Shown: positions 2,118-57,206, numbered from the stretch's first letter. The stretch is 64,000 bases of DNA from Bacteroidetes oral taxon 274 str. F0058 (GCA_000163695.1 GG774889.1:520042-584041), one strand, 5' to 3'. Made by a program: numbers and translations. The notes: generated by a model from the sequence alone, not told the origin.

Positions 2118-2142
2118 CGTATCCTGTCTTCTTCGAGTTTTT

Positions 2143-4703: not shown

Positions 4704-4713
4704 TTTTTGTGTT

Positions 4714-8893: not shown

Positions 8894-9089
8894 ATAAGAA
8901 ACAAATTATTAAATTAAAAAAACAATTTATATAAAATTATAATTCACAAAATTACACTAAGCAACCTATACGTGTCAATACCTAAAACAAGTGATTTTTT
9001 ATAGATAAATTAATGTGATAAGGTATGCCTGTTGAATCTACAAAATCAAAATAATCAGGAAAGATTGTTTGTCTATTTGTTTTTTTTAA

Positions 9090-9097
9090 TAACTTTG
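9090..9097 (+). promoter_or_regulatory. -7 promoter motif TAACTTTG for LRR gene 1
   Basis: Preceded by a T7 tract; lies ~84 bp upstream of the ATG, so the leader is long. Confidence 0.5.
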
Positions 9098-9180
9098 TCA
9101 TTTCGGATAAAATAATAGATAAAAGCTATATATAAGGTTCAGATAATATATTTTTATTAACTAAATAATTCGTATAAAAG

Positions 9181-11160
9181 ATGAAAAGAGTTTTTCGAAA
9201 AATGATTATCGCCTTGTTGGCGATATTGTGGGGAGTCTCATCGGTACAGGCACAGAGTGTCAATATGGACCGTTACATTACCCTTACCGTAAAGCAGGGT
9301 GCAGCCGTGCTTATTAATATGGCTTCCAATGCGGCTAATACTCCTATAAAGATAGTAAGTGGCAGCGAAGAGTGGAATATAACCGTTGGTACTCTTTGGA
9401 CAGGGGTAAAGAGTTACACTGCCGGAGCCACCACTATGACGGTATATGGTGATGTTCTGAAATTCGACTGTAACGAGAATATGGAAGATCTTACAGGACT
9501 CGATGTAAGCCACAACGATCTGATGTCAAGTTTGGAATGTACCAATAATTCTCTTACCTCGCTCGACGTAAGTAAAAATGAAAAGCTTATATCACTCCAG
9601 TGTGCGGACAATTTTCTTACCACGCTTGACGTAAGCAGTTGTACTAATTTGAAAACTTTAAATTGCTTCAACAACAACCTTACCACGCTCGACGTAAGTA
9701 AAAATACGCAACTTAGGATAATTTACTGTTTCTCAAATAAACTTACTTCGCTCGACGTAAGTAAGAATACGCAACTGGTGATACTTAATTGTCAAGGTAA
9801 TAAGTTCACAACCGAAACCCTTGATGACCTTTTCTGCTCGTTGCCGCAAAGGAAAGGGTTGCTGACAGGGAGAATAGCGCCCGTTACGAGCTCCTCTTCG
9901 CCCGACAACAGTATGGTGCTTGCCACTAACGGCAATAATGCCACTGCTAAGAATTGGAAAGTCGTATACTATGCCAACAATGCCCCAATTACAGGCTTTA
10001 CCGGCACGAAACAGTGTGAAGGCGGTAGCAATGTCAATATGGACCGTTACATTACGATGTCGGTTACTGAGGGCGACAGTATCAAACTCGATATCTCTGC
10101 CGATGTTGCTGGTACTCAGGTGAAAATATCGAGTGGAGGCGAAGAACAAATCATAACCGTAGGTACCGCCTGGACAGATACTAAAAAGTATGCTGCCAAA
10201 GCCGGAACTATGACTGTCTACGGTAATGTAAATCGATTCAACTGCGGCAAAAACGGTAAAAAAATAACCGGACTTGACATAAGCCACAATACACAACTTA
10301 ACTTATTGTTTTGCGAAGAAAATGATATTCCTTCTCTGGATATAAGTAAAAATACACATTTGGAGTTTCTGGAGTGCTACGACAACAAGATACCTTCATT
10401 AAACTTAAAAAACAGCCCGAAACTGTCGAGATTGAGCTGCTACAGAAATTCCCTTTCTACGCTCGATGTGAGCAATAATACGCTGCTGACATTCTTGAGC
10501 TGTCATACCAATAAACTTACTTCGCTTGACGTGAGCAAAAACACTAATTTGCAAATTCTAAATTGCAGATCGAACCAACTGACTTCGCTCGATGTAAGTA
10601 AAAATACTGAGTTGGAATGGTTGTATTGCTTTGACAACAAGCTATCTTCTCTTGATATAAGTAAGAATATTCATTTAAGTTCGTTGTATTGCTATGGCAA
10701 TAATTTTTCAACTGCTGTTCTCGATGACATTTACTGCTCGTTGCCCGACAGGAAAGGTAAAGACGGAGGTAAAATAGACCCTGCATACAATGCTTCCTCT
10801 CCTGATAAAGATAAAGTACTCGCCTCCAATGGCAACAATGCTATAGCTCGTAACTGGAAAGTGCAATATTTCGAAGATGATTCCGATATTACAGGCTTTA
10901 CCGGCACACATCAGTGCGGAGGTGGTACGGGTATCGATGAAGCGAAAGGCTTACCTGCGCTTGCCGTTTACCCCAATCCCGTCAAAGATATCCTGAATAT
11001 AATTTCCGATACCCCCGTCCACAGCATACGCATATACAACGTATACGGTACGGAAGTAGCCCACGCTACCGATACCAACAGTATCGACGTCTCTCATCTG
11101 CCCGCAGGCGTCTATATGGTGCGTGCCGACGGCAAGGTAACGAGGATTATTAAGGAATAA
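9181..11160 (+). CDS. secreted LRR protein with two modules and a T9SS (Por) C-terminal sorting domain
   Basis: Signal peptide ...SSVQAQ; the N-domain starting SVNMDRYITLTV occurs twice (second copy NVNMDRYITMSV). ~22-aa LRRs (L-TSLDVSKNTxLxxLxCxxNxL), Cys linker ...DDLFCSLPQRKG / ...HQCGGG, and C-terminal domain LAVYPNPVKDILNI...GVYMVRADGKVTRIIKE (Por_Secre_tail-like). Confidence 0.85.
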   Translation: MKRVFRKMIIALLAILWGVSSVQAQSVNMDRYITLTVKQGAAVLINMASNAANTPIKIVSGSEEWNITVGTLWTGVKSYTAGATTMTVYGDVLKFDCNENMEDLTGLDVSHNDLMSSLECTNNSLTSLDVSKNEKLISLQCADNFLTTLDVSSCTNLKTLNCFNNNLTTLDVSKNTQLRIIYCFSNKLTSLDVSKNTQLVILNCQGNKFTTETLDDLFCSLPQRKGLLTGRIAPVTSSSSPDNSMVLATNGNNATAKNWKVVYYANNAPITGFTGTKQCEGGSNVNMDRYITMSVTEGDSIKLDISADVAGTQVKISSGGEEQIITVGTAWTDTKKYAAKAGTMTVYGNVNRFNCGKNGKKITGLDISHNTQLNLLFCEENDIPSLDISKNTHLEFLECYDNKIPSLNLKNSPKLSRLSCYRNSLSTLDVSNNTLLTFLSCHTNKLTSLDVSKNTNLQILNCRSNQLTSLDVSKNTELEWLYCFDNKLSSLDISKNIHLSSLYCYGNNFSTAVLDDIYCSLPDRKGKDGGKIDPAYNASSPDKDKVLASNGNNAIARNWKVQYFEDDSDITGFTGTHQCGGGTGIDEAKGLPALAVYPNPVKDILNIISDTPVHSIRIYNVYGTEVAHATDTNSIDVSHLPAGVYMVRADGKVTRIIKE

Positions 11161-11166
11161 ACATAC

Positions 11167-11200
11167 TGTTAAATCGTTCAGTCGTTGAATTGTTTAACTG
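11167..11200 (+). promoter_or_regulatory. conserved 3'-UTR palindromic element (copy 1 of 10)
   Basis: CTGTTAAATCGTTCAGTCGTTGAATTGTTTAACTG lies directly after the stop codon. A variant of the consensus CTGTTTAAgCGTTCAATCGTTGAACTGTTTAACTG sits at the same place after every array gene. Confidence 0.6.
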
Positions 11201-11215
11201 ATTTTGATAAAAAAA

Positions 11216-11254
11216 CGGGGAGTGGAGTTAGTACCGCTCCTCGTTTTATTTTTT
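11216..11254 (+). terminator. intrinsic terminator of LRR gene 1 (array consensus)
   Basis: CGGGGAGTGGAG...CCGCTCCTCG hairpin followed by TTTTATTTTTT. Near-identical hairpins follow array genes 2 and 6-10; those after genes 3-5 have divergent sequences. Confidence 0.75.
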
Positions 11255-11321
11255 GCGTTGTCTTGGAGAACATTGCGGTTGGTTTTTGTTAAAATAACTT
11301 TCATAATTTTAGCTTTTTTAT

Positions 11322-11329
11322 TAACTTTG
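11322..11329 (+). promoter_or_regulatory. -7 promoter motif TAACTTTG for LRR gene 2
   Basis: The same motif recurs at 14561, 17137, 19002 (TACCTTTG), 20856 (TAATTTTG), 23468, 24674, 27768 (TAACTTCG) and 29277. Confidence 0.55.
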
Positions 11330-11416
11330 CCGCTGCTAAAAAAAATTGAGATTTAAAAAGCGAGTAGTCGAAACACGAATAGTTAGTTTTATTAATCAAA
11401 TAAATATTTACAAAAG

Positions 11417-14362
11417 ATGAAAAGTGTTTTTCAAAAATGTCTTATCGCTCTTTTGGCGATATTGTGGTGTGTCTCCTTGGTGCAGGCACAGAGTGTCAAT
11501 ATGTCTCGTTACATTACGCTGACTGTCGAGAAAGGAGCGGATATATTGCTTGATATTGCTGCCGATGCGGCTAATACTCCTATAAAGATAGTAAGTGGCG
11601 ACAAAGAACAGACTATAACCGTTGGTACGTCGTGGACAGGGGTAAAGAGTTATGCCGCAGGAGATGCTACTATGACGGTCTATGGCGATGCACTGAAGTT
11701 GGATTGCAGTAAAAACGGTGCAAAAGTTACAGGTTTGAATACAAGCAGCAATGCACAATTGCAATTGTTGTTTTGCTACAAAGACTCTATTAGCTCGCTC
11801 GACCTAAGTAATAATGAAGAGCTGAAAAGCTTGCATTGCTTTGGCGACAAACTCACTTCGCTCGATGTAAGTAAAAATAAACAGTTGCAGTGGTTGAAAT
11901 GCCACGACAACCGACTTACCACTATCGACGTAAGCCATAATACGCAATTAAAATATATGACTTGCTATGGCAACGATTTTACTACTGCGGCTTTGGATAA
12001 TATTTATTGCTTATTACCCGACAGGACAGGACAAAAGGCAGGAGAAATACAGCCGTTGCTAAATGCCTCGTCTTCAGAGAAAAACAAGGTACTCGCTACC
12101 AACGGTAACAATGCCATTGCCCGAAACTGGAAAGTGCAGTACTCTCAGAATAGTTCCGTGATAACAGGCTTCACGGGCACTAAGCAGTGTGGCGGCAGTA
12201 GCGGTGTCAATATGGACAGATACATTACTCTGACTGTCGTATCGGGCGAAGAAATCAATCTGAATTTTTTTGCCGATGCCGATAATACGCCGATAAAAAT
12301 AGTGAGTGGTACCAAAGAACAAACCATAACCGTAGGTGCTTCGTGGACAGGTATGAATAAATACATTACTGACGGCAGTACTATGACGGTTTATGGGAAT
12401 GTCCAAAAATTCAGTTGCGGAGGCAATGGAAAGAATATAACGGGGCTTGATGTAAGCCACAATTCGCAATTGACCATATTATATTGCGATAAAAACGCTA
12501 TTATCTCGCTTAATGTAAGCGGCAATACGGAGTTAAAAAATTTAGATTGTAAAGAGAACGCTATTGCATCTCTCGATTTAAGTAACTGCAAACAGTTGAA
12601 GTGGGTATATTGTAACAAAAATGCTCTTACTTCGCTCAACGTAAGTAAATGTGAACAGTTGGAACTGTTGAAATGCTATGAGAATAAACTTACTTCTCTT
12701 GATGTTGGTAATAATGCTATGTTGAAGATGTTATATTGCGAAGAAAATGCTCTTACATCTCTCGACGTAAGCCGCAATACAGAGTTGATAAGCCTGTATT
12801 GTCAACAAAACTCTATTTCTTCCCTTAACTTGGGTGGTAACACAAAGTTGCGAATATTGTTTTGTTACGAAAATGCTCTTAACTCACTCGATGTAAGTAA
12901 ATGTACACAGTTGGAATGGTTGTATTGTGCGGATAATCCTATTTCTACTCTCGACATAAGTCATAATAAGCATTTAAGTACATTGTATTGCTATGGCAAC
13001 AACTTTACTACTGCCGCCCTCGATGATATTTACTGCTCGCTACCCGACAGGAAAGGCAAGAGCAAAGGGGATATAGCTCCTCTGCTAAATGCTTCGTCTG
13101 TCGACAAAAGCAAGGTGCTTGCTACCAATGGCAACAATGCCGCTGTTAGGGGTTGGAAGGCAATATATTACGAAGGCAACTCGGAGATTACAGGCTTTAC
13201 CGGTACTAAACAGTGTGGCGGCGGTAGCGGTGTCAATATGGACAGATACATTACGCTGACCGTCGATAAAGGTAAGGAAATATTTCTAAGCGTCTATGCC
13301 TCCGCAGATAATACTCCTATAAAAATAGTTAGCGGCGACAAAGAGTATACCTTCAATACAGGCGCCGGCTGGACAAAAATGAGCAAATACACTGCCGGAG
13401 CCGGTACTATGACAATCTACGGTAATGTATGGCAATTCAACTGTCGTGATAATGCCGCAAATATTACGGGCTTGGATGCGAGCCACAATGCAGAATTACA
13501 GACATTGATATGTAATAATAATGCTATTGCCTCACTCAATGTAAGCGGCAATACGGACTTGATAGGTCTATACTGTCTGGGTAATGCTCTGACAACGCTC
13601 GATGTGAGCAAAAATATGAAATTGGCGAATTTGTATTGCTATGAAAATTCACTTACTACCCTCGATATAGGCAACAATACGGAGTTGGCTTTTCTGGATT
13701 GCCGCTCGAACAAACTCACCTCTCTCGACGTTAGCAAGAATAAGAAGCTGAAGACGCTCGATTGTCGCTCCAATAAGCTTACCGCAATTGATTTAAGTAA
13801 CAATACGGAGTTGGAAAGTTTCCATTGTTCCGAAAACGCTCTTTCTACGCTCGACCTGAGCCACAATTCCGAATTAAATTCGTTGTATTGCTACGGCAAC
13901 AACTTTACTACTGCTGCCCTTGACGACATTTACTGCTCTCTGCCAAACAGAGGCGGACAAGCAATAATAGGGTTGATACAACCTCTACTCAATGCTTCGT
14001 CGCCCGATAAAGACAAAGTGCTTGCTACCAACGGCAACAATGCCGCTACTAAAAACTGGGCTCTGACTTATTATGAAAATGATGCCGAGATTACGGGCTT
14101 TACCGGCACACATCAGTGCGGAGGCGGTACAGGCATCGACGAAACTAAAGACTTACTCTCACTTGCCGTCTACCCGAACCCCGTCAAAGACATTCTGAAT
14201 ATAGCTACCGACAAACCCGTACACAACATACGCATATACAACGTATACGGCACGGAAGTAGCCCACGCAACCGATACGAACAGTATCAATGTATCGCACC
14301 TGCCCGCAGGTGTATATATGGTGCGTGCCGACGGTAAGGTAGCAAGGATAATCAAGGAATAA
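11417..14362 (+). CDS. secreted LRR protein with three modules and a T9SS C-terminal domain
   Basis: 981 aa; the N-domain motif GVNMDRYITLTV restarts near nt 12200 and 13222; three LRR blocks, each followed by the linker YCxLPDR.G...ATNGNNA...ITGFTGTxQCGG; C-terminal domain identical in type to gene 1. Confidence 0.85.
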   Translation: MKSVFQKCLIALLAILWCVSLVQAQSVNMSRYITLTVEKGADILLDIAADAANTPIKIVSGDKEQTITVGTSWTGVKSYAAGDATMTVYGDALKLDCSKNGAKVTGLNTSSNAQLQLLFCYKDSISSLDLSNNEELKSLHCFGDKLTSLDVSKNKQLQWLKCHDNRLTTIDVSHNTQLKYMTCYGNDFTTAALDNIYCLLPDRTGQKAGEIQPLLNASSSEKNKVLATNGNNAIARNWKVQYSQNSSVITGFTGTKQCGGSSGVNMDRYITLTVVSGEEINLNFFADADNTPIKIVSGTKEQTITVGASWTGMNKYITDGSTMTVYGNVQKFSCGGNGKNITGLDVSHNSQLTILYCDKNAIISLNVSGNTELKNLDCKENAIASLDLSNCKQLKWVYCNKNALTSLNVSKCEQLELLKCYENKLTSLDVGNNAMLKMLYCEENALTSLDVSRNTELISLYCQQNSISSLNLGGNTKLRILFCYENALNSLDVSKCTQLEWLYCADNPISTLDISHNKHLSTLYCYGNNFTTAALDDIYCSLPDRKGKSKGDIAPLLNASSVDKSKVLATNGNNAAVRGWKAIYYEGNSEITGFTGTKQCGGGSGVNMDRYITLTVDKGKEIFLSVYASADNTPIKIVSGDKEYTFNTGAGWTKMSKYTAGAGTMTIYGNVWQFNCRDNAANITGLDASHNAELQTLICNNNAIASLNVSGNTDLIGLYCLGNALTTLDVSKNMKLANLYCYENSLTTLDIGNNTELAFLDCRSNKLTSLDVSKNKKLKTLDCRSNKLTAIDLSNNTELESFHCSENALSTLDLSHNSELNSLYCYGNNFTTAALDDIYCSLPNRGGQAIIGLIQPLLNASSPDKDKVLATNGNNAATKNWALTYYENDAEITGFTGTHQCGGGTGIDETKDLLSLAVYPNPVKDILNIATDKPVHNIRIYNVYGTEVAHATDTNSINVSHLPAGVYMVRADGKVARIIKE

Positions 14363-14416
14363 TACTGTTTAAGCGTTCAATCGTTGAACTGTTTAACTGA
14401 TGTTTTCATTAAAAAA

Positions 14417-14448
14417 CGGGGAGTGGAGTTGATACCGCTCCTCGTTTT
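14417..14448 (+). terminator. intrinsic terminator of LRR gene 2
   Basis: AACGGGGAGTGGAGTTGATACCGCTCCTCGTTTT. Confidence 0.7.
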
Positions 14449-14656
14449 GTGATTTGCGTTGTCTTGGCGGACATTACGGCTCGTTTTTTACTCTGATGTT
14501 TACCTACTTAAACTATATGATTTTTTGTCGAAATAATTTTCATAATTTAAGCTTTTTTATTAACTTTGCGCCGCTGCTAAAAAAATTGAGATTTAAAAAG
14601 CGAGCAGTCGAAACACGAATAGTTAGTTTTATTAATCAAATAAATTTTTAAAAAAG

Positions 14657-16951
14657 ATGAAAAGTGTTTTTCAAAAATGTCTTATCGCCCTCTTGGCGAT
14701 ATTGTGGGGTGTCTCATCGGTGCAGGCACAGAGTGTCAATATGTCTCGTTACATCACGATGACCGTGAAAAGCGGAGAGAACATAGAACTTGACTTCTCG
14801 GGAGACGCTGACGGTACGCAGGTGAAAATAGTTAGCGGTGCCCAAGAGCAAACCGTAACGGTAGGTACCTCTTGGATAGGTCCTCAAAGGTATACAGCCG
14901 GAGCGGGTACTATGACTGTCTACGGCAATGTATCGAAGTTTAATTGCAATAGTAACGTTGCAAAAATCACAGGACTCGATGTAAGCCACAATTCGGAGTT
15001 GAAAAGTTTGCTGTGTTACAAAAACAAACTCTCGTCGCTCGATGTAAGCAAATGCGGAAAACTGACGGAGCTGGATTGCGGTATTAATTCTCTTACCTCG
15101 CTGAATTTAAGTGGCTGCGGAGAATTGATTGAATTAGATTGTTCGAGCAATAGCCTCACCTCGCTGGACGTAACTCGCAATACGAAATTGACGGATTTGA
15201 GTTGCTACGACAATAAACTTACCTCGATAGATGTAAGCAAAAATACTCAATTGATACTTTTTAGTTGCAGCCTCAACTCTATTGCCTCGCTTGATGTAAA
15301 GAACAATACCAAGTTGGAAGAGTTTTTCTGCCATAGCAATTCGCTCACCTCTCTCGACATAAGTAGCAATACGAGATTGGTAAGGTTGAATTGCAGTAAC
15401 AACAAAATCGAATCGCTCGATTTAAGCAATAATATGAAATTGCAATTTCTCTTTTGCTTTGCCAATTCGCTTACTTCGCTCAAATTTAACCCCGATTCGA
15501 AGTTAAATTCGTTGTATTGCTATGACAATAAATTTACCACTGCCGCTCTCGACGATATTTATTGCTCGCTGCCCGACAGAAAAGGGGTAACCGCAGGAGT
15601 GATGCAACCCTTACATGATGCTTCGTCGCCCGACAAAGATATAGTACTTGCTACCAACGGCAGCAATGCTACTTCCAAAAATTGGAAGATTCTGTATTTT
15701 AAGGATTTTACCGACATTAAGGGCTTTACCGGCACTAAACAGTGTGGCGGAGGTAGCGGTGTCAATATGGAGCGTTACATAACGTTTGCCGTAAAGAAAG
15801 GAGCAAAAATAGAAATCGATTTTGCGGCAGACGAAGAAAACACACCAGTTAAGATAGTGAGCGGTACAACCGACCAGACCATAACCGTAGGTATCGACTG
15901 GGTAGGGTCGATGGATTATGTAGCCGGTGACGCTACTATGACAGTATATGGTAATGTGCGTAGAGTAGACTGCAACGAGAATAAGGGAAATATAACCGCC
16001 CTCGATGCAAGCCACAACGTACCACTTGCGTATATCAATTGCGACAACAACTCTATCTCATCGCTCAATGTGAGCAAAAATACGCAATTGAGTGCACTGT
16101 ACTGTTCCGATAACTCTCTTTCTACGCTCGATGTGAGCAATAACGGACAGCTGGAGTATCTCAACTGTTATAACAACAAGCTTACACAGCTCGACTTGAA
16201 AAATAATACGAAACTGACATTCTTGAACTGCGGTAGAAATACTATCTCTTCGCTCGATTTAAGTAAAAATACGCAATTGAGCATATTGTACTGTAATGAT
16301 AATAAACTTACTTCGCTCGGTATCGACCATAATATCCTTTTGAAGAGTTTTGGTTGTAACAACAACTTGCTCTCGTCTCTCGATGTGAGCAAAAATACAC
16401 AATTGGATATACTGTATTGCTACACCAATCGTCTCACTAAGCTCGATGTAAGCAAAAATACAAAATTGAAAAGATTGTATTGCCATACGAACAATTTTAC
16501 TACTGCCGCCCTCGATGATATTTACTGCTCGCTGCCCGACAGAAAAGGACAAACAGAGGGACAAATACAACCGTTGTTCAACGCCTCGTCTGCCGACAAA
16601 AGCAAGGTTCTTGCTACCAACGGCAACAACGCTATTGCCAAGGGATGGAAGATACAGTATTTCGAGAAAAACACCGATATTACGGGCTTTACGGGCACAC
16701 ATCAGTGCGGAGGCGGTACAGGTATCGATGAAGCGAAAGGCTTACCTGCGCTTGCCGTTTACCCCAATCCCGTAAAAGATGTCTTGAATATAGCTACCGA
16801 CAAACCGGTACACAGCATACGCATATACAATGTATACGGCACGGAAGTAGCCCACGCCACCGATACGAACAGTGTCAATGTATCACACCTACCCGCAGGT
16901 GTCTATATGGTGCGTGCCGACGGCAAGGTAGCAAGGATAATCAAGGAATAA
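14657..16951 (+). CDS. secreted LRR protein with two modules and a T9SS C-terminal domain
   Basis: 764 aa; the first 37 aa are identical to genes 2 and 8; second module starts at GVNMERYITFAV; C-terminal domain conserved. Confidence 0.85.
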   Translation: MKSVFQKCLIALLAILWGVSSVQAQSVNMSRYITMTVKSGENIELDFSGDADGTQVKIVSGAQEQTVTVGTSWIGPQRYTAGAGTMTVYGNVSKFNCNSNVAKITGLDVSHNSELKSLLCYKNKLSSLDVSKCGKLTELDCGINSLTSLNLSGCGELIELDCSSNSLTSLDVTRNTKLTDLSCYDNKLTSIDVSKNTQLILFSCSLNSIASLDVKNNTKLEEFFCHSNSLTSLDISSNTRLVRLNCSNNKIESLDLSNNMKLQFLFCFANSLTSLKFNPDSKLNSLYCYDNKFTTAALDDIYCSLPDRKGVTAGVMQPLHDASSPDKDIVLATNGSNATSKNWKILYFKDFTDIKGFTGTKQCGGGSGVNMERYITFAVKKGAKIEIDFAADEENTPVKIVSGTTDQTITVGIDWVGSMDYVAGDATMTVYGNVRRVDCNENKGNITALDASHNVPLAYINCDNNSISSLNVSKNTQLSALYCSDNSLSTLDVSNNGQLEYLNCYNNKLTQLDLKNNTKLTFLNCGRNTISSLDLSKNTQLSILYCNDNKLTSLGIDHNILLKSFGCNNNLLSSLDVSKNTQLDILYCYTNRLTKLDVSKNTKLKRLYCHTNNFTTAALDDIYCSLPDRKGQTEGQIQPLFNASSADKSKVLATNGNNAIAKGWKIQYFEKNTDITGFTGTHQCGGGTGIDEAKGLPALAVYPNPVKDVLNIATDKPVHSIRIYNVYGTEVAHATDTNSVNVSHLPAGVYMVRADGKVARIIKE

Positions 16952-17189
16952 TACTGTTTAAGCGTTTGATTGTATAATCGTTTAACTGAATTGTAAAACA
17001 AAAAGCGAGGAGCGGCACAATGCTGTTTCTCGTTTTTTATATTCTATCGAGTGTATCCGTAGTGGAGTAAGTTGTATCTATGCGGGAATATGTATGTGGG
17101 GTTGCAGTTATAGTTTTTACAAATTAATAAATTTACTAACTTTGCCGCCCCAAAAGATACTTATATTAATCAACAAATCTCATACAAAA

Positions 17190-18707
17190 ATGAATAGACT
17201 TTTTCGTAAGACAATTGTCGCCCTATTGGCGATAGTATGGAGTGCCTCATCGTTGCAGGCACAGGAAGTAAATATGTCCCGCTACATCACGCTGACGGTA
17301 AAGCAGGGTACAACCGTACATTTCGATATTTGGGCAGACGCTCCGAATACTCCCATAAAAGTGATAAGTGGCGATAAAGAGCGAGAAATAACCGCAGGTA
17401 CGGAATGGACAAGTATAAAAAACTACATTGCCGGAGCCGGTACTATGACGATTTACGGTAATGTACAGAAGTTTGATTGCGACGAGAATAAAGAAAAAAT
17501 TGTCGGTGTCGACCTAACCCACAATACAAAACTGACCGAGTTGGGTTGTTCGGGAAATCGTATTGCTACCCTCGATGTAAGCCAGAGCACACAGTTGGAA
17601 GCATTGTATTGTAGTGGCAATCGCCTTGCAGCTCTCGATGTTAGTAAAAATACGCAACTGAAAAGTTTGAACTGTTTCGATAATAGTCTTGCAGCTCTCG
17701 ATGTCAGTAAAAATACACTACTATTGTATTTGAACTGCGGCATAAACTCTATTACCTCCCTCGATGTGAGTCATAATACGGAATTGACGAATCTGTACTG
17801 TCATTCCAATCGTATTGCCTCGCTCGACGTCAGTAAAAATACGAAGTTGGTACAATTGCATTGCTTCGAAAACTCTATTGCATCACTCGACTTGAGCCGA
17901 AATACTGCATTGACTTTATTGTATTGCTACAAAAATGCTCTTACCTCGCTCGACCTAAGAAACAATACAAATGTCGAAAGATTGATTTGCTTCGAAAACT
18001 CTCTTACCTCACTCGACGTAAGTAATAGCAAGCAACTTACGCTCTTGAATTGCCACACAAACCGCCTTACGTCGCTCGACCTGAGCCACAACGCCAAACT
18101 GGGTAAGCTGAGTTGCTACAAAAATGCTCTTACGTCGCTCGATATGAGTAATAATCCGGAATTGGAATGGATATATTGTTTCGAAAACCCTCTTGCAGAG
18201 TTCAAATTAAGAAACAATATGCGTCTGAGGTCGTTGCATTGTTACGACAATAAACTCACTACCGCCGACTTAGACGATCTTTTCTGCTCGCTGCCCGATA
18301 GAAACGGACAGGCAGAGGGAAGGATAGGTATCCTCTTCAATGCGTCGTCTGCCGAGAATGCCAAAGTACTCGCCACCAACGGCAGAAACGCCGTTGCAAA
18401 AAACTGGACGGTACAGTATTACGAAGATAAATCGGAAATCAAGGGTTTCACAGGTAACCATCAGTGTACGACTACAGGCTTGGACGATATAAAAAACAAA
18501 CAGGACATATCCGTCTACCCGAACCCCGTAGAAGACGTCCTGAACATAACTTCCGACAAACCAGTGCACAGCATACGCTTATACAACGTGTACGGCACGG
18601 AGGTACTCCGAGCTGCCGATACGAACAGCGTCGACGTCTCTCATCTGCCCGCAGGCGTCTATATGGTGCGTGCCGACGGCAAGGTAGTGAGGGTAATCAA
18701 GAAATAA
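17190..18707 (+). CDS. secreted LRR protein with one module and a T9SS C-terminal domain
   Basis: Start taken at MNRLFRK (17190), where the signal peptide begins; the annotated 17094 start lies upstream of the -7 promoter motif at 17137. About 14 LRRs; C-terminal domain ISVYPNPVEDVLNITSDKPVHSIRLYNVYGTEVLRAADT... Confidence 0.8.
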   Translation: MNRLFRKTIVALLAIVWSASSLQAQEVNMSRYITLTVKQGTTVHFDIWADAPNTPIKVISGDKEREITAGTEWTSIKNYIAGAGTMTIYGNVQKFDCDENKEKIVGVDLTHNTKLTELGCSGNRIATLDVSQSTQLEALYCSGNRLAALDVSKNTQLKSLNCFDNSLAALDVSKNTLLLYLNCGINSITSLDVSHNTELTNLYCHSNRIASLDVSKNTKLVQLHCFENSIASLDLSRNTALTLLYCYKNALTSLDLRNNTNVERLICFENSLTSLDVSNSKQLTLLNCHTNRLTSLDLSHNAKLGKLSCYKNALTSLDMSNNPELEWIYCFENPLAEFKLRNNMRLRSLHCYDNKLTTADLDDLFCSLPDRNGQAEGRIGILFNASSAENAKVLATNGRNAVAKNWTVQYYEDKSEIKGFTGNHQCTTTGLDDIKNKQDISVYPNPVEDVLNITSDKPVHSIRLYNVYGTEVLRAADTNSVDVSHLPAGVYMVRADGKVVRVIKK

Positions 18708-19046
18708 AGTGCTTGTAAGGGGGGATTTGTATGTTTACCCTTTTATAAGATAAAATATGGGCGAGCCACATCGGTTCGCCTTTCTGTTATGCATATTTGT
18801 CGGAGTATATACAAGGGTATGGAGTGATATAAATAGGCTTACCGTTAGGTTTTGTTTGTCGTCCCAGTCTGTACGACTATTCTGCAAGATAATCTCTTGC
18901 TTTATAGGCATTTATGAGAGTGTTTGTGTTTGTGAATGGCTTGATATTAATATTCAATTGACACGTAGGGGTACATTCGAGGAATTTTTATTACCTTTGC
19001 CGCCCAAAAATAAATACTTTTATTTATCAACAAATCACATAAAAAA

Positions 19047-20636
19047 ATGAATAAACTTTTTCAAAAAACTATTATCGCCCTGCTGGCGATAGTGTGGAGT
19101 GCCGCCACCATTCAGGCACAGAATGTAAATACTGATCGTTACATTAAGCTGACCGTAGAGCAAGGACAGAAGATTAAGTTAAGGCTGTGGGCAGATGCCG
19201 CAGGCACATCGGTAAAAATCGTAAGCGGTGCCCAAGAGCAGACAATAACGGTAGGTTCGGCGTGGTCTTCCGCTCAAGATTATACTGCCGGCGACGGTAC
19301 TATGACGATATACGGTAATGTGCAGAGATTAAACTGTGCAGGGAACGGCAAAAATATCATAGATATCGATCTTAGCCATAATACGCAGATGACTATGCTC
19401 TATTGCGAAGAGAATGCTCTCTCTACTCTCGACATTAGTAAAAATACTAAATTGACGAGATTGAGTTGCCAAAAGAATGCTCTTACTGCGCTCGACATCA
19501 GTCATAATAAGCAGCTGGAGTATTTAAGCTGCTTTTCGAACAAACTTAAAGCCCTCGACGTAAGTAGTAATGAACAGTTAGTATGGCTGTATTGTTACGA
19601 TAATGACTTTACCACAGCCTCTTTGGATGACCTTTTCTGCTCGCTACCCGATAGAGAAAATAAAAGTGTAGGAAAAATAGGACTCGTATTTAATGCTGCC
19701 TCTCCCGAAAAAGACAAAGTACTCGCCACCAATGGCAACAACGCTACCTCAAAAAATTGGAAGTTACAGTATTATGACGATGATATTGACATTAAAGGAT
19801 TTAAGGGTACATACTCGTGCGGTAGTAATGTTAATATGTCTCGTTACATAACGTTGACCGTACAAAAGGGTGCCGATATACAACTTGACCTCTGGGCGGA
19901 TGCTGCCGGTACTCCTGTGAAAATAGTGAGCGGCGACAGCGAGAAAGTTATAACCATAGGTACGGATTGGATGGGACCAAAGAGTTATGAAGCCGAAGCT
20001 AATACTATGACAATATACGGCAATGTGCAGAGGTTCGATTGTGACGATAATTCCGAAAATATTACAGGGATCGATATAAGCCACAATACGGAGTTGCAGC
20101 GTATGCTCTGTAACGGTAATGCTCTGACGGCTCTCGATATAAGTCACAATAAGCAATTGAGTTATCTGGCTTGCTACGGCAATAAGTTTACTGCCGCTAC
20201 CTTAGACGACATCTATTGCTCGCTACCCGACAGGAAAGGACAAACCGCAGGACAAATACTACCGTTGTTGGGAGGAAGTTCTTCCGACAACGGTAAGGTG
20301 CTTGCTACCAACGGCAGCAATGCTACTGCCAGAAATTGGAAAATACAGTATTATAGCGACGAAGCTGATATTACGGGCTTTACGGGTACACATTCGTGCA
20401 CAACCGGTATAGAAGATATAAAAAATACGAATGACATATCCGTTTACCCGAACCCTGTCAAAGACATTCTGAATATAGCCTCCGACAAACCTGTACACAG
20501 CATACGCATATACAACGTATACGGCACGGAAGTAGCTCACGCTTCCGATACGAACAGCGTCGACGTATCTCATCTGCCCGCAGGTGTCTATATGGTGCGT
20601 GCCGACGGCAAAGTAGTGAGGGTTATTAAGAAATAA
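19047..20636 (+). CDS. secreted LRR protein with two short modules and a T9SS C-terminal domain
   Basis: 529 aa; second module starts at NVNMSRYITLTV; each LRR block is short (~4-5 repeats); C-terminal domain conserved. Confidence 0.85.
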   Translation: MNKLFQKTIIALLAIVWSAATIQAQNVNTDRYIKLTVEQGQKIKLRLWADAAGTSVKIVSGAQEQTITVGSAWSSAQDYTAGDGTMTIYGNVQRLNCAGNGKNIIDIDLSHNTQMTMLYCEENALSTLDISKNTKLTRLSCQKNALTALDISHNKQLEYLSCFSNKLKALDVSSNEQLVWLYCYDNDFTTASLDDLFCSLPDRENKSVGKIGLVFNAASPEKDKVLATNGNNATSKNWKLQYYDDDIDIKGFKGTYSCGSNVNMSRYITLTVQKGADIQLDLWADAAGTPVKIVSGDSEKVITIGTDWMGPKSYEAEANTMTIYGNVQRFDCDDNSENITGIDISHNTELQRMLCNGNALTALDISHNKQLSYLACYGNKFTAATLDDIYCSLPDRKGQTAGQILPLLGGSSSDNGKVLATNGSNATARNWKIQYYSDEADITGFTGTHSCTTGIEDIKNTNDISVYPNPVKDILNIASDKPVHSIRIYNVYGTEVAHASDTNSVDVSHLPAGVYMVRADGKVVRVIKK

Positions 20637-20909
20637 ACATACCGGTTAAGCGTTCAGTCGCGTTGAGCTGTTTAACTGAATTGTAAAATAAAAAGGGAGG
20701 AGTAGTACAAGGCGACTGCTCCTCTCTTTATTGTTTGAGTGCTCGCACCTTACAATAATTAATATTTTTATTGAAAAACAAATTGTGGCTGTGTGTCAGA
20801 TGTTTATCTCTGGCGGCTTCTGAATTATCGATGCTATATTAAAAGAAATTTTTACTAATTTTGTCCTCCGAAAATACACTCATATTTAACTAATAATTTC
20901 AAACTAAAA

Positions 20910-23270
20910 ATGAATAGATTTTTTCAAAAGGTTCTTATCGCCGTGCTGGCGATAATAGTGTGTGGTGCTTCATCATTGCGGGCACAAAGTGTCAATATGG
21001 ATCGCTATATGACGATTACCGTCAAGCAAGGAGCAAGTATAAACTTCAGTATGTGGGCAGATGCTGCCGATACTCAGGTAAAAATAGTTAGCGGTAGCAA
21101 CGAGCAGACCATACCGGTAGATGCTTCTTGGACAGCTATGAATGATTATGTTGCCGGAGCCACTACTATAAAGATTTATGGTAATGTGCTTAAATTAAAC
21201 TGTTTTAGAAACGGACTTAACGTTACGGGATTGGACGTGAGCCACAATACTCAGTTGCAGGAATTAAATTGCTATAGCAATGGTCTTACCTCACTCGATA
21301 TAAGTGGAAATGCACAATTGGAGCTGTTGAGTTGCTATGACAATAAACTTACATCGCTGAATCTGAGTAACAGTCTGCAGCTGACGGAATTAAACTGTCA
21401 AGATAATTTTCTTACATCTCTCGATGTAAGTCGCAATACGAAACTGAAAGAATTATATTGTTACAAAAACTCTCTTACATCTCTTGTCTTAGGTGATAAT
21501 GCGAATTTAGAATGGTTGTATTGCTTCGACAACTCTATTTCTAAGCTCGACCTGAGCAAAAGTACACAGTTGGAACGATTGTTTTGTTATAATAATTCTA
21601 TTTCCACACTCGACCTAAGTCACAATACACAATTGCTATCATTGAATTGCCATGGCAATAAATTTACCACCGCCTCTATCGACGATATTTACTGTTCGCT
21701 GCCCGACAGAAAAGGAAATCCCACAGGAATGATATATCTTTTGTTTAATGCTTCGTCTGCCGATAAAGACAAGGTGCTCGCTTCGAATGGCGGTAATGCG
21801 ACCAATAAAAACTGGGAGGTGAAGTATTATGAAAGCAACTCGAATATTACGGGTTTTACCGGTACGCATCCTTGCGGAGGAGGCAGCGGGGTAAACACAG
21901 ACCGCTACATAACGCTCACAGTGAAGGAGCGTAAACAGATATGGCTCAACTTATGGGCAGATGCCGCCGATACTCAGGTAAAAATAGTTAGCGGCAGCAA
22001 CGAGAAGACCGTAACCGTTGGCGACAAATGGACAGAATGGAAAGATTATACCGCAGGTGCAGCTACTATGACCATTTACGGTAATGTGCGAAAACTCGAT
22101 TGTAGCAACAATAACACGAACATTACGGGCTTGGATGCAAGCCACAATGCACAATTGCAAGAATTATTGTGTTATAGCAATTCTCTTACTTCTCTCGACT
22201 TGAGCCACAATACTCAGCTAAAAGTGTTGGGTTGTTTCGCCAATTCTATTACCTCGCTCGATGTAAGCCACAATGCACAGCTGACCGAACTGGATTGCTC
22301 GGAGAACAAGATTTCGTCGCTCGACGTAAGCAAAAATACACAGTTGGTAAAGTTGTTTTGTCTGAAAAACTCCATCTCCACACTCGACGTAAGCCACGAT
22401 ACGCAATTGACATCGCTGAATTGCTCCGAGAATAAGATTTCGTCACTCGATGTGAGCAAAAATGTGAAGTTGGAGAAACTGCATTGTAACAAGAATGCCC
22501 TTACCTCAATCGACGTGAGCAAGAATTTACAACTGACGGGACTGGATTGCTCTGCAAACAAACTTAAGTCTATCGACGTAAGTAAAAATACGGTGTTGGA
22601 ATGGCTGTATTGTTTCGATAACTCCATCACCTCGCTTGATGTGAAGAACAATACGCAATTGAAAAATTTACGTTGCTTCAACAACAGTCTTGCCACGCTC
22701 GACGTAAGTAAAAATACTGAGCTCGAATGGCTTTATTGCTATGGGAACTCCCTTGCAGCTATCGATATAAGTAAAAATACGCAGTTGAAAGACTTCGTTT
22801 GCTATGGCAATAAATTTACTACTGCCTCTCTCGACGATATTTACTGTTCGCTACCCGACAGAAACGGTAAAGCAACTGGTATAATACGACCCGTACTCGA
22901 TGCTTCGGCACCCGATAACAGCAAGGCTCTTGCCTCTAATGGCAAAAACGCTACCGACAAAAACTGGAAGATAATGTATTATAAAGGCAATTCCGATATT
23001 ACGGGCTTTACGGGCACATATCAGTGCGGAGGCGGCACAGGCATCGACGAAACGAAAGACTCACCTGCACTTGCCGTCTACCCGAACCCCGTCAAAGATA
23101 TACTGAATATAGCTACCGACAAACCTGTACACAGCATACGCATATACAACGTGTATGGCACGGAAGTAGCCCAAGCCACCGATACCGACAGTATAGACCT
23201 CTCTCATCTGCCGTCAGGCGTCTATATGGTGCGTGCCGACGGCAAAGTAACGAGGATTATTAAGGAATAA
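20910..23270 (+). CDS. secreted LRR protein with two modules and a T9SS C-terminal domain
   Basis: 786 aa; the second LRR block contains internally duplicated repeats (...LDCSENKISSLDVSKNTQL... occurs twice) and shares an ~130-nt block with gene 10. Confidence 0.85.
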   Translation: MNRFFQKVLIAVLAIIVCGASSLRAQSVNMDRYMTITVKQGASINFSMWADAADTQVKIVSGSNEQTIPVDASWTAMNDYVAGATTIKIYGNVLKLNCFRNGLNVTGLDVSHNTQLQELNCYSNGLTSLDISGNAQLELLSCYDNKLTSLNLSNSLQLTELNCQDNFLTSLDVSRNTKLKELYCYKNSLTSLVLGDNANLEWLYCFDNSISKLDLSKSTQLERLFCYNNSISTLDLSHNTQLLSLNCHGNKFTTASIDDIYCSLPDRKGNPTGMIYLLFNASSADKDKVLASNGGNATNKNWEVKYYESNSNITGFTGTHPCGGGSGVNTDRYITLTVKERKQIWLNLWADAADTQVKIVSGSNEKTVTVGDKWTEWKDYTAGAATMTIYGNVRKLDCSNNNTNITGLDASHNAQLQELLCYSNSLTSLDLSHNTQLKVLGCFANSITSLDVSHNAQLTELDCSENKISSLDVSKNTQLVKLFCLKNSISTLDVSHDTQLTSLNCSENKISSLDVSKNVKLEKLHCNKNALTSIDVSKNLQLTGLDCSANKLKSIDVSKNTVLEWLYCFDNSITSLDVKNNTQLKNLRCFNNSLATLDVSKNTELEWLYCYGNSLAAIDISKNTQLKDFVCYGNKFTTASLDDIYCSLPDRNGKATGIIRPVLDASAPDNSKALASNGKNATDKNWKIMYYKGNSDITGFTGTYQCGGGTGIDETKDSPALAVYPNPVKDILNIATDKPVHSIRIYNVYGTEVAQATDTDSIDLSHLPSGVYMVRADGKVTRIIKE

Positions 23271-23558
23271 ATAGACTGTTTAAACGTTCAGTCGTTGAAT
23301 TGTTTAACTGATTTTGATAAAAAACGGGGAGTAGCGTAGAACTGCTCCTCGTTTTATTCTTTGCGTTGTCTTAGTTAATATTGTGGTTTATTTTTACTGA
23401 TTTTTACCTACTAAAACTATGGTAATTGTTTATGCAAAAATAACTTTTATAATTTGAGCTATTTTATTAACTTTGCGTCCCGAAAAATTTGTTTAAAAAA
23501 TACCCGAATTATAAACTAAAAATTATAACTAATATATTAACTAAAATTTTACACAAAA

Positions 23559-24473
23559 ATGCAGAAGTTTTTTGTAACGATTGCTATTGCCATTATAGCG
23601 GCGATATGGAGTATGCCTTTGCAGGCAGAAGATTACAACATCAAAATCGGAGGTAAGGCTATAACTTCCGATAACTACAAAAAAATTACCAAAGAAAACG
23701 GCTTTGATGCCATAAAGAGTGGAACGGTAAGCTACGCCCACGATACGCGTACCCTGACTCTTATTGACGTCATTATAGAGGCGGATAAAAATGTCAACCC
23801 AATAGACATCATCAACACCGAGGAATTGTACACCATTAAGCTCGAGGGTGATAACAAAGTTACTGCCGTAGGAAAATGTAGGGGAATAAACAACAGCAAA
23901 GGTTCGCTGCGTATTACGGGCAGCGGAAAAGTCTCGGTCTCCGGCGATATCTCAATATTCGCTATGAAGAGGCTGACTTTCGATGGAGGCTGTAATGTCA
24001 ATGCAAGTGCTCAGGTAATGGCTTACAACGAAGATATTATAATAGACGGTGTGGAAATGTATGTTAAGGAGAATGGATATCCTGCATTCTGGGCAAGAAC
24101 AGGTATCGAACTCAAAGGTGGTAGCGTGGTAGTCTATCCGGAAGATGCAGTCGTAGGTCAGAAGACAAGTGCAAGCGGCTCTTATTACACATTTATGAGA
24201 AATGAGGAGCATTGTACAGAGGTACGCATAGGTCGCGGCACAGGCATCGACGAAGCGAAAAACTCGCCTTCACTCGCCGTCTACCCGAACCCCGTCAAAG
24301 ATATACTGAATATAGCTACCGACAAACCGGTACACAGCATACGCATATACAACGTATACGGCTCGGAAGTACTCCGAGCTGCCGATACCAACCGTATCGA
24401 CGTATCTCATCTGCCCGCAGGCGTCTATATGGTGAGTGCCGACGGCAAGGTAACGAGGATTATTAAGAAATAA
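23559..24473 (+). CDS. non-LRR secreted protein carrying the same T9SS C-terminal domain (passenger-swapped array member)
   Basis: 304 aa; signal peptide, then a ~220-aa passenger with no LRR and no N-domain motif (GGKAITSDNYKK...VVVYPEDAVVGQK...), then RGTGIDEAKNSPSLAVYPNPVKDILNIATDKPVHSIRIYNVYGSEV...RIIKK. The flanking spacer elements match the rest of the array. Confidence 0.8.
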   Translation: MQKFFVTIAIAIIAAIWSMPLQAEDYNIKIGGKAITSDNYKKITKENGFDAIKSGTVSYAHDTRTLTLIDVIIEADKNVNPIDIINTEELYTIKLEGDNKVTAVGKCRGINNSKGSLRITGSGKVSVSGDISIFAMKRLTFDGGCNVNASAQVMAYNEDIIIDGVEMYVKENGYPAFWARTGIELKGGSVVVYPEDAVVGQKTSASGSYYTFMRNEEHCTEVRIGRGTGIDEAKNSPSLAVYPNPVKDILNIATDKPVHSIRIYNVYGSEVLRAADTNRIDVSHLPAGVYMVSADGKVTRIIKK

Positions 24474-24765
24474 ATATACTGTTTAAACGTTCAGTCGTTG
24501 AATTGTTTAACTGATTATGATAAAAAAACGGGGAGTGGAGTTAATACCGCTCCTCGTTTTGTGATTTGCGTTGTCTTAGTTAATATTGCGGTTGGTTTTT
24601 GCTGATAGTTGCCCACTTTAAATTGTAGTAATTGTTTTTGCAGAAATAACTTTTATAATTTAAGCTATTTTATTAACTTTGCCGCTGCTAATGCGGGAAA
24701 AGAAGAAGCATAAAAATAGGTTCAGAATAATATTTTTTTTATTCATTAAATAATTCGTACAGAAG

Positions 24766-27525: not shown

Positions 27526-27868
27526 ATGCCGTTTAAACGTTCGATTGTTGAACTGTTTAACTGAGGTTTTCATTAAAAACGGGGAGCATAACAAGAATTG
27601 TTCCTCGTTTTTTGTTATGTTTTTGGTGATTCATCTTTTATAGGATTTGCTAACCAATGGCTTGTAATTCATAAGCTTTATTTCACTACGAAAATTACCA
27701 TAGATTATCTAAATAACACAGTATGATTTTTATAATGGAGCCTGAACACCGTTAAAAAAGTTTTTTATTAACTTCGCCGACTAAAAAGTAAAAATCAGAT
27801 ATGGGTTGATATTTGTTTGAATTTCAGGAATTTTCATAAATAATAAATATATAATAATCAATAAAAAA

Positions 27869-29077
27869 ATGAGTAAACTTTTTCGAAAAAAAATGATTGT
27901 TGCCATTTTGGCAATAATGTGCGGTGCTGCCATCGTGCAGGCACAAGAGGTAAATATGTCTCGCTACGTTACATTGAATGTAACAAAGAATGAAAAAGCG
28001 TCGCTTAGCCTCACAGCCGACGCAGACAACACTCCGTTGAAAATAGTAAGCGGCGGTCAGGAAAATGCCGTAACTATCGGTACATCGTGGACAGATAGCA
28101 AAGAGTACGCCTCAGTAGACGGTACTATAACAATCTACGGTAATGTGCAGAAAATCAATTGTAGTAATAACGATAAAAAGTTGACAGGTATCGACGTAAG
28201 CCATAATGCCGAGCTAACCATACTGTTTTGCTTCAAAAACGCTCTTACTACGCTCGACGTAGGTAATCTTACCAAGTTGGAGTATTTATATTGCAACGAC
28301 AATAAACTTACCTCGCTTGATTTAAGCAAAAACAAACAATTGTCGAAATTAAATTGCTTCGGAAATACTATATCTTCACTGGATCTAAGTCAAAATTCAC
28401 AATTGGAAATCGTGCGTTGCTACAAGAATGTACTTACTAAGTTCAATATAAACGGCTGCAACCAACTGACACTTCTGCACTGCGGAGAGAATCGTCTTAC
28501 CTCGCTCGATGTAAGTGCAAATACAAAACTCGAACGTCTGTATTGTGATAATAATGATATATCCAAACTTGATGTAAGCAACAATGAGCAACTGAATACG
28601 TTGTTTTGTTACAACAATAAATTATCCGTAGAGGCTTTCGATGACCTTTTTTGTTCTTTGCCTAATAGAAAAGATAAAGAAGCGGGTAAAATAGCCCCTA
28701 CCCTCAATAAGTCGTCTGCCGAAAAAGACAAAATACTCTCCACCAATGGTATAAATGCTATTACAAGAAACTGGGATGTACAGTATTATGAAGAGGAATA
28801 CAATATTAGCGGTTTCAAAGGCACACATCAGTGCGGAGGCAGTACAGGCATCGACGAAACGAAAGGCTTGCCTGCACTCGCCGTTTACCCGAACCCTGTC
28901 AAAGATGTCCTGAATATAGCTACCGACAAACCGGTGCACAGCATACGCATATACAACGCGTACGGCACGGAAGTAGCCCACGCCGCCGACGCTACGAGTA
29001 TCGATGTATCGCAGCTGCCCGCAGGCGTCTATATGGTGCGTGCCGACGGCAAGGTAACCAGAATTATTAAGGAATAA
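27869..29077 (+). CDS. secreted LRR protein with one module and a T9SS C-terminal domain
   Basis: 402 aa; signal peptide, N-domain, ~8 LRRs, linker and conserved C-terminal domain. Confidence 0.85.
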   Translation: MSKLFRKKMIVAILAIMCGAAIVQAQEVNMSRYVTLNVTKNEKASLSLTADADNTPLKIVSGGQENAVTIGTSWTDSKEYASVDGTITIYGNVQKINCSNNDKKLTGIDVSHNAELTILFCFKNALTTLDVGNLTKLEYLYCNDNKLTSLDLSKNKQLSKLNCFGNTISSLDLSQNSQLEIVRCYKNVLTKFNINGCNQLTLLHCGENRLTSLDVSANTKLERLYCDNNDISKLDVSNNEQLNTLFCYNNKLSVEAFDDLFCSLPNRKDKEAGKIAPTLNKSSAEKDKILSTNGINAITRNWDVQYYEEEYNISGFKGTHQCGGSTGIDETKGLPALAVYPNPVKDVLNIATDKPVHSIRIYNAYGTEVAHAADATSIDVSQLPAGVYMVRADGKVTRIIKE

Positions 29078-29362
29078 GTATGCTTGTTGGGACGTTCAAT
29101 CGTTGAACTGTTTAACAGAGTCTCATATAAAAAACGGGGAGTAGTGTAGAGCTGCTCCTCGTTTTGTTGATTGAATTTTTGAAACTATTATTTCTGTATG
29201 TGATTTATATCTCTTGATTATTAAGGCGTTATGGTTGCTTTTCGTAAAAAAATTTTTATAATTTAGTTTCTTTTCATAACTTTGCATCGGCAGAGAATAA
29301 AATAAGTTAGTGTATTAGAATGAGTAAATGTTTTTTAATTAATTAAATAAAAATGCATTAAT

Positions 29363-30634: not shown

Positions 30635-30858
30635 GTATTCTGTTGAGACGTTCAATCGTTGAACTGTTGAACTGAGTCTCTGATTAAAAAAACGGAGAGT
30701 AGTGTAGAGCTGCTCCTCGTTTTGTTGATTGCGTTAGCTTGGGGCGAATATCGCAAGTCGTTTTTACTGACGGTTGCCCGTTAGACTACCTGTTTCTATC
30801 CCGAATAGACAGTAGGCTAAAATCCGCAATTTTTTAGAAATGGGCAATTCCCCGGAGG

Positions 30859-57070: not shown

Positions 57071-57206
57071 TACCCCTGTATGATTTCGGGGAAAATAAAA
57101 TCTTTAATTTCTGATTCGTAATTAAATATGTTGTTCGCCTCTATATTGCATTTCCACAGGGCAATCACAAGGATTGCCCTTAATTGTTATTACATCGCTA
57201 TATACT

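Follow-up and report, generated by a model that had tools for sequence, protein, structure and literature searches.

REP palindromes and enterobacterial 3′-UTR stem–loops are known as stabilizers of mRNA 3′ ends, and REPs that lie within ∼15 nt of a stop codon reportedly lower the translation of the upstream gene. TRAP, like HutP, binds triplet repeats next to a terminator and alters termination or read-through. The metbox operators of MetJ are made of two to five tandem 8-bp units of AGACGTCT and are located at promoters, while attC sites span ∼57–141 bp, begin with RYYYAAC and end with GTTRRRY, and contain R/L boxes and extrahelical bases, with cassettes that are usually promoterless. The invertase Mpi of Bacteroides has the repeat consensus ARACGTWCGT, and the C-terminal repeats of rgpA, kgp and hagA in Porphyromonas gingivalis are shared paralog 3′ ends that are kept alike by gene conversion. 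To our knowledge, the Bacteroidota are without Hfq, ProQ and CsrA, their post-transcriptional control is poorly mapped and few 3′-UTR cis elements have been described in them, and we know of no cognate TRAP/HutP-type protein in this group.

Here, we analyzed a repeated element in the 3′ flanks of a gene array of Bacteroidetes oral taxon 274 str. F0058, a human oral bacterium, within a 64,000-nt (64-kb) stretch of DNA that we call the window. The array contains ten same-strand genes (see the table), whose products all (10/10) carry LRR_4 and a C-terminal Por_Secre_tail by Pfam, the latter being the T9SS C-terminal sorting domain (CTD), and the proteins of the window are exact matches to EFI16880–EFI16915. 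Each array gene has its own Bacteroidota −7 box (TAACTTTG; also given as TTATTAACTTTGC) and its own intrinsic terminator, so the array is a string of separate transcription units. The paralogs have in common a 3′ module of ∼330 nt, comprising ∼240 nt of the CTD-coding end and ∼95 nt of flank with the element and the terminator, and the blocks in which paralogs are 79–88% identical all stop ∼95 nt past the stop codon. The terminator stems have 96% paired cells when pairs are counted over 24 variants. At the other end of the genes, the spacers upstream of genes 2 and 3 (11330–11416 and 14570–14656) contain a near-identical promoter/leader of ∼90 nt, TTATTAACTTTGC...TTGAGATTTAAAAAGCGAG.AGTCGAAACACGAATAGTTAGTTTTATTAATCAAATAAAT, and the leaders differ in the remaining cassettes; the genes are thus less alike at their 5′ ends than at their 3′ ends.

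Features of the array and its 3′ flanks, in coordinates of the window
Feature	Position	Strand	Remarks
LRR/CTD array	9181..30634	+	ten genes
CTD-coding DNA, gene 2	14124..14362	+	Por_Secre_tail match, Pfam
Element, gene 1 (stop 11160)	11166..11201	+	CM 55.4 bits
Element, gene 2	14365..14400	+	CM 63.9 bits; TRF period 8
Element, gene 3, degenerate	16954..16989	+	CM 53 bits; middle units GTTTGATT GTATAATC
Element, gene 5	20642..20679	+	CM 50 bits; 38 nt, two extra loop bases (GTTCAGTCGCGTTGAGC)
Element, gene 6	23276..23311	+	CM 63.3 bits
Element, gene 7	24479..24514	+	CM 63.3 bits
Element, gene 8	27529..27564	+	CM 57.9 bits; GTTCGA..TTGAAC, one G-U pair
Element, gene 9	29084..29119	+	CM 50 bits
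Element, gene 10 (last of array)	30640..30675	+	CM 56.1 bits
Terminator, gene 2	14411..14448	+	A-tract, 11-bp GC-rich stem, U-run; AAAAAACGGGGAGTGG-agttgata-CCGCTCCTCGTTTT
Equivalent terminators	11209-11247, 16995-17038, 20685-20729, 23319-23355, 24522-24560, 27575-27613, 29129-29165, 30686-30723	+	
Hairpin in the element's place, gene 4	18712..18749	+	unrelated; 12 bp, CUUGUAAGGGGG...CCCUUUUAUAAG
Hairpin in 3′ flank of 11th paralog	57159..57180	-	not the element; GGGCAAUC-cuugu-GAUUGCCC
Partial copy after purF	58981-59004	-	three units, TGTTTAAG CGTTTAAT TGTCGAAA; two-unit exact pattern, 0 matches in 30 shuffles

Two features elsewhere in the window were observed in passing. Positions 1–66 are the 3′ end of a 16S rRNA, followed by tRNA-Ile(GAT) and tRNA-Ala(TGC), and a ferritin/Dps-like gene (599–1066) comes after the tRNAs, where no 23S rRNA gene stands; either an unlinked rRNA operon or a join made in assembly may account for this. 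In addition, two adjacent genes of unknown function (61418–62053 and 62186–63391) have a common 3′ flank of ∼130 nt with 88% identity (61290–61420 and 62056–62188, − strand), in which a conserved stretch, GTTACACTGAGCTCTCCACACCAAAAGAGCAAAAACAATCTATTAAT, lies behind a small hairpin.

The element is 36 nt long and consists of four tandem 8-nt units of the form YGTTNAAN (TGTTTAAG CGTTCAAT CGTTGAAC TGTTTAAC) followed by TGA, for which TRF reports a period of 8 and 4.5 copies. An earlier sequence-only reading of this DNA had described a palindrome flanked by direct TGTTTAA repeats, a description that the octamer array replaces. The 38-nt string which it gave for the gene 2 copy, TACTGTTTAAGCGTTCAATCGTTGAACTGTTTAACTGA, is present, though at 14363–14400 and not at 14364–14400, its start having been placed one base off, and it does lie between the stop codon and the terminator as described, directly behind the TAA of gene 2 (14360–14362); the units of this copy read cTGTTTAAG CGTTCAAT CGTTGAAC TGTTTAAC TGA. 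In other strains, the element occurs with five units, one of them an extra GTTAAAAC, or in a different four-unit version, and across copies, strains and relatives the number of units varies from three to six with the phase kept. The GC content of the element is 28–50%, with CUGA and the spacer downstream. Its placement is regular: in 9/9 window copies it starts 2–6 nt past the stop codon and ends 5–10 nt before the terminator A-tract, the stem–loop described below begins 7–11 nt past the stop codon, and the same spacing to stop and terminator is found in 55 distinct module sequences (52 distinct 3′ flanks) in other strains. From this place between a stop codon and a textbook intrinsic terminator, we infer that the element is transcribed. 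It is not itself an intrinsic terminator, as no GC-rich stem directly precedes a U-run and the true terminator follows 5–10 nt downstream, and a coding or recoding signal is ruled out by a linker of 2–6 nt that does not vary in threes and by the period of 8.

We searched the 64 kb with a covariance model (CM) built from 29 distinct copies of the element; nine copies, whose E values range from 1e-10 to 3e-14, are its only matches at E < 2. The core GTTCAATCGTTGAAC, at no more than two mismatches, has 7–8 matches in the window, on the + strand after array genes, where 0.2 are expected, and together with the CM E-values this rules out a chance origin. The copies stand behind genes 1, 2, 3 and 5–10; eight are canonical, the one behind gene 3 is degenerate (GTTTGATTGTATAATC), two extra loop bases are present in the one behind gene 5, and gene 4 has no copy, so the earlier statement that the element follows all ten genes has to be lowered to 9/10. 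Behind gene 4 (stop 18707), a different hairpin stands ∼5 nt past the stop codon and is followed by a second, terminator hairpin, and because this hairpin occupies the site of the element, a layout of two hairpins recurs there. The 11th paralog at 57207 was correctly described as having no copy; its own hairpin lies ∼27 nt past the stop codon, and both of these members have unrelated, GC-richer hairpins in their 3′ flanks, so that a hairpin in front of the terminator region is a recurrent feature of variable sequence. The element is also absent from two further family members, L005 at 6942 and L038 at 186.

The copies are tight to the stop codon and loose (220–310 nt) to the next start codon, and an upstream regulatory site of the next gene is unlikely, since gene 1 has no copy upstream and the gene 10 copy has no family gene downstream, where the next gene (31139–32140) is on the opposite strand. 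A generic terminator flank is ruled out: 30/31 other gene 3′ flanks in the window are without the element. REP-like dispersal is not seen in the 64 kb either, with only the nine array copies there, the single exception being a partial copy behind purF.

Beyond the window, Rfam 15 gives no matches to the array at gathering thresholds and only noise at E up to 10 in 23200–24800, which rules out a known RNA family. An exact-pattern scan of species-representative genomes returned one unrelated match; taxon 274 itself gave no match in this collection, the species being unrepresented or the region masked, so the genome-wide negative rests on the scan of metagenome contigs. There, the pattern was found at 18 loci, all but one environmental contig have the element right behind the same CTD stop codon, and the relevant loci all align to this array locus in other strains. 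Single matches in L001 (a Feifaniaceae MAG) and L009 (an environmental contig) were set aside as unrelated: their number is about the chance expectation, and they lie beside the start of an opposite-strand gene, unlinked to CTD genes. Viral contigs have 0 matches to the exact pattern, and a phage origin is ruled out on this ground. By the metagenome scan and the 64-kb window, the canonical element is confined to one locus in one lineage. The case of a motif common after unrelated genes, which would have refuted the sequence-only reading, does not hold for the canonical form, which is found at the array locus only; one partial copy, which that reading had missed, stands behind purF.

The purF copy has three units and begins 6 nt past the stop codon of a gene that is purF by Pfam, and the 11th LRR paralog lies ∼260 nt downstream of it. 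Of the 24 bases of this copy, 20 agree with the gene 2 copy, and the hairpin CM gives it no score. In sister taxa, the purF orthologs (84–90% protein identity) have no copy and different downstream neighbors. A relic of a full array spacer is ruled out, as only the first ∼24 nt of the spacer between purF and gene 11 are common to the array spacers; the copy is species-specific.

In the RNA, the element is predicted to fold into an outer 6-bp stem, a one-base bulge and an inner 6-bp stem closed by a UCG or UUG loop, at −4 to −14 kcal/mol; the gene 2 copy forms the 6 bp + 6 bp stem with a UCG loop and the gene 5 copy reaches −14.6 kcal/mol. The perfect 6-bp inverted repeat that had been noticed from the sequence is present in the copies of genes 2, 9 and 10, while G:T mismatches interrupt it in the remaining copies and become G-U pairs in the RNA. 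The 12 predicted pairs are paired in 94.8% of cells, compared with 17–59% for slid partners. In 33/35 variants, the fold is more stable on the sense than on the antisense strand (mean −6.8 versus −4.2 kcal/mol), and the polymorphisms seen most often, A/G opposite U and C/U opposite G, keep pairing only in the sense RNA. Stem pair 15/21 occurs as A-U, G-U, U-A (L006) and G-C (L038); in L038, where the CTD has ∼78% protein identity at a query coverage of 100%, the element is present and pairing is restored by the G-C. Among the roles that had been proposed for the element, an RNA signal thus fits best, in accordance with the sense-strand hairpin, the dominance of changes that preserve G-U pairing and the types of pair 15/21.

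Covariation is not significant, with a score of 0.184 versus 0.188 in shuffles and 94.8% paired cells versus 94.3% in column shuffles, and double changes were found at one pair only in the set before L038 was added. The terminator of the same sequences, used as a control, has likewise weak covariation, and because a real terminator behaves in this way, the data set has low power either way. The hairpin alone is weak against dinucleotide shuffles (mean z −1.4, with 23% of variants below −2). The array folds because each GTTNAAC is self-complementary, and the fold may be a by-product of this repeat, which is self-complementary by construction. Our favored reading, held tentatively, is that the element is a lineage-specific, transcribed 3′-UTR cis element, a weak REP-like stem–loop made of octamers, within a 3′ module that recombination homogenizes.

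Sequence constraint was measured as nucleotide diversity in 55 distinct 3′ modules (180 nt of CDS plus flank) from the window and other strains. Diversity is 0.08 at codon positions 1+2 and 0.25 at codon position 3, 0.20 in the linker between stop codon and element, 0.143 in the element, 0.44 in the spacer between element and terminator, 0.14–0.16 in the terminator stems, 0.45 in the terminator loop and 0.46 past the terminator. The element is less diverse than CDS third positions (Mann–Whitney p = 0.0036) and than the other non-coding columns (p = 3e-5), in a comparison that holds few independent events because all copies are related by descent and recombination. The earlier impression that it is more conserved than the neighboring spacer is borne out (0.14 versus 0.44). 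The element is constrained on a par with the terminator stems, and this is not a simple decay away from the CDS: the last unit, GTTTAACTGA, which is farthest from the CDS, is the most conserved, with a diversity of 0.03. Within the octamer, diversity by phase is Y 0.23, G 0.03, T 0.03, T 0.09, N 0.24, A 0.11, A 0.19 and N 0.29, with GTT near-invariant in every unit, unpaired positions included. Unpaired positions (G3, U4, the loop G and the CUGA tail) are conserved like paired ones, which points to a reading of the primary sequence and not of structure alone.

These values bear on whether the array could be a neutral passenger, born by slippage, homogenized by gene conversion and unequal crossing-over, and without function. 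Slippage would be expected to give the variation of three to five units that is seen among copies and strains, and mosaic copies (as in L006), the frequent recombination between 3′ modules, the paralogs in which the element is missing, the non-significant covariation and the weak fold would all be at home in such an array, as would the different tandem repeats that homologs carry at the same site, which suggest a mutational tendency. However, homogenization leaves unexplained the lack of a gradient, with the linker and the spacer both more diverse than the element and the farthest unit least diverse of all, and the periodic conservation, in which G, T and T (0.03–0.09) stand against N and Y (0.23–0.29). 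It also has to account for the retention of the element in L038 at a CTD identity of ∼78%, with pairing restored by G-C. We consider a functionless array doubtful, though a serious competitor to the favored 3′-UTR element.

The array is recombinationally active: cassette order, presence and chimerism vary between strains (L003, L004, L006, L011, L015, L016, L018 and L020 compared with 9181–30634). In L016, gene 8 has moved behind gene 9, and in L003 genes 2 and 3 are missing; in L004, the array adjoins sequence matching window 421–2946, with ∼6 kb (2946–9180) missing or moved. A mosaic copy of the element itself occurs in L006, where a gene-2-type 5′ half is joined to a gene-6-type 3′ half. 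Three-way alignment resolved three junctions, two of them in L016 (gene 7/gene 8 and gene 9/gene 7) and one in L003 (gene 9/gene 7), and all three switch parent in CTD-coding DNA, ∼40–230 nt before the stop codon, with 0/3 in the element. The recombination substrate is the ∼330-nt 3′ module as a whole. Among the array proteins and 27 of the flanking ORFs of the 64-kb window, Pfam revealed neither a recombinase nor an integrase or transposase, and no RAYT transposase is present in the window.

An attC-like site for site-specific recombination, marking the borders of mobile cassettes, would, like the element, be an imperfect palindrome directly 3′ of each ORF in an array of one orientation. The cassette order and content that differ between strains and the partial copy at the junction of purF and the 11th paralog could also be seen in this light, and GTTGAAC/T fits the core GTTRRRY as GTTTAAC fits RYYYAAC. 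The core order is nevertheless wrong, since the GTTTAAC at the 3′ end agrees with RYYYAAC instead of GTTRRRY, and GTTGAAC is mid-element; the element has 36 nt versus at least 57 nt, each cassette has its own promoter and terminator, and the canonical element is never found outside this locus. The crossovers lie in CTD-coding DNA and the window has no integrase, recombinase or transposase, so this reading fails, and with it the earlier suggestion of a recombination signpost as a specific crossover site; we regard it as extremely improbable. Likeness to the Mpi repeat (AAACGTTCGA in the gene 8 copy) was also considered and set aside, as there is no inverted partner near any promoter.

The near-invariant GTT raises a different possibility, namely that an oligomeric protein reads GUU or GTT every 8 nt and in this way co-regulates the cassettes or the read-through between them, in the manner of TRAP or HutP if it acts on RNA, or of MetJ on its metboxes if it acts on DNA. 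GTT is invariant even where it is unpaired while the spacer bases vary, the phase is preserved over three to six units, and the element is always 5–10 nt upstream of the terminator A-tract. A precedent is HutP, which recognizes XAG triplets spaced by 4 nt, both within the hut terminator and next to it (PMC2425495). The protein-binding operator proposed in the sequence-only reading finds no direct support: the array has no linked regulator, and compensations that change bases speak against a fixed half-site, although the GTT periodicity leaves room for a sequence-reading factor.

Homologs of the family extend this comparison, within the little reach of a CTD protein search that returned mostly short fragments. 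LRR/CTD homologs with 51–59% CTD identity are found in contigs of ∼42–49% GC, probably from another oral Bacteroidota. L022 has (AATTACR)x4 (963–1000) between stop codon and terminator, L023 has (GTTTTRG)x4 (812–840) at the position of the element, and L024 has three GTTTTAG-like units past the stop codon (849–870); these heptamer repeats show no fold. In L022, six octamer-family units (∼1045–1095) stand on the opposite strand, ∼20 nt before the same bidirectional terminator. Tandem repeats of 7–8 nt upstream of terminators therefore recur in the LRR/CTD family with differing sequence and foldability, which keeps alive both a neutral tendency to form them and a binding platform.

For the latter, the independent six-unit array on the other strand is in favor, as are the heptamer arrays that homologs have at this position. 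On the other hand, no candidate binding protein was found, none is encoded beside the array, no alternative pairing between element and terminator was noticed by eye, the three repeat sequences in related genes would need three specificities, and some paralogs are without the element. We judge a periodic protein platform at this locus unlikely. A broader version is that the octamer and the homolog heptamer arrays together would represent an undescribed class of 3′-UTR triplet-repeat RNA platform with a TRAP/HutP-like reader, which we hold to be decidedly unlikely. If it were true, such a platform would adjust termination, read-through or the stability of the mRNA wherever a surface-protein cassette ends, and the variable repertoire of surface proteins would then be expressed in a coordinated or a mutually exclusive way.

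Two further repeats of the homolog contigs were observed. In L023, (TTCGTAA)x4 at ∼1040–1075 abuts the −7 box of the next gene, which is purL-like. Near the arrays, both L022 (∼1100–1273) and L023 (∼880–1000), two unrelated contigs of the second organism, contain a GC-rich repeat with a palindromic end, GCATACTTTTCTTGT..ACAAGAAAAGTATGC, which may be a MITE.

The conserved stretch just upstream of the terminator would also fit a 3′-UTR-derived sRNA of ∼90 nt, which would comprise the element hairpin, the spacer and the terminator hairpin, would be processed near the stop codon of every paralog mRNA and would pair with targets in trans through the invariant GUUUAACUGA. Two hairpins and a U-tail are a typical sRNA layout, this most conserved stretch is partly unpaired, and the many copies would give a high dosage. 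Against this, inspection of the final ∼100 nt of the CDS by eye showed no internal promoter motif, and Rfam has no match. We consider an sRNA very unlikely.

Returning to the favored reading of a 3′-UTR cis element, the four YGUUNAAN units (three to six in relatives) would fold in the mRNA into a weak, AU-rich, imperfect stem–loop, and homologous recombination and gene conversion would keep the 3′ module similar between cassettes. The element would then act after transcription, like a REP-type or other 3′-UTR stem–loop: it may help the terminator to protect or set the 3′ end of the mRNA, or it may be a site for a factor that reads the repeated GUU and so gives all paralogs the same 3′-end control. 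Action at the RNA level, and any specific effect on stability or termination, is inferred. The element is a concrete and easily mutated candidate for the co-regulation of a recombining repertoire of T9SS LRR surface proteins, and it could show whether read-through between cassettes is controlled. Even an inert element would show precisely how far the homology block behind the shuffling of cassettes between strains extends.

Set beside the described systems, the element belongs to no curated family. It is closest to REPs in being a 30–40-nt imperfect palindrome that is extragenic, 3′ of genes, predicted to be transcribed and multicopy, and in lying a few nt past the stop codon and upstream of the true terminator. 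Unlike REPs, it is AU-rich, weak (−4 to −14 kcal/mol) and octamer-built, is found in one gene family and locus instead of being dispersed genome-wide, and lacks a REP-like conserved head. With the TRAP and HutP sites, it shares a triplet (GUU) of fixed period with variable spacers, repeated three to six times directly upstream of an intrinsic terminator; it differs in its period of 8 versus 5–7 and in its location in a 3′ UTR and not in a leader, and neither a second site nor an antiterminator alternative was seen at the element by eye. The tandem 8-bp quasi-palindromic units of variable copy number recall MetJ operators, whereas the element lies past a stop codon and is mRNA-oriented, with an asymmetry of the G-U type. 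As in attC, an imperfect palindrome with GTT core-like heptamers stands behind each co-oriented ORF, but length, core order, integrase, promoterless cassettes and the place of crossover all fail to agree. Finally, the array resembles rgpA, kgp and hagA in that a conserved C-terminal coding block and its flank are common to paralogs and serve as a recombination substrate; in contrast to that system, the block here contains a discrete non-coding element that is constrained like the terminator stems.
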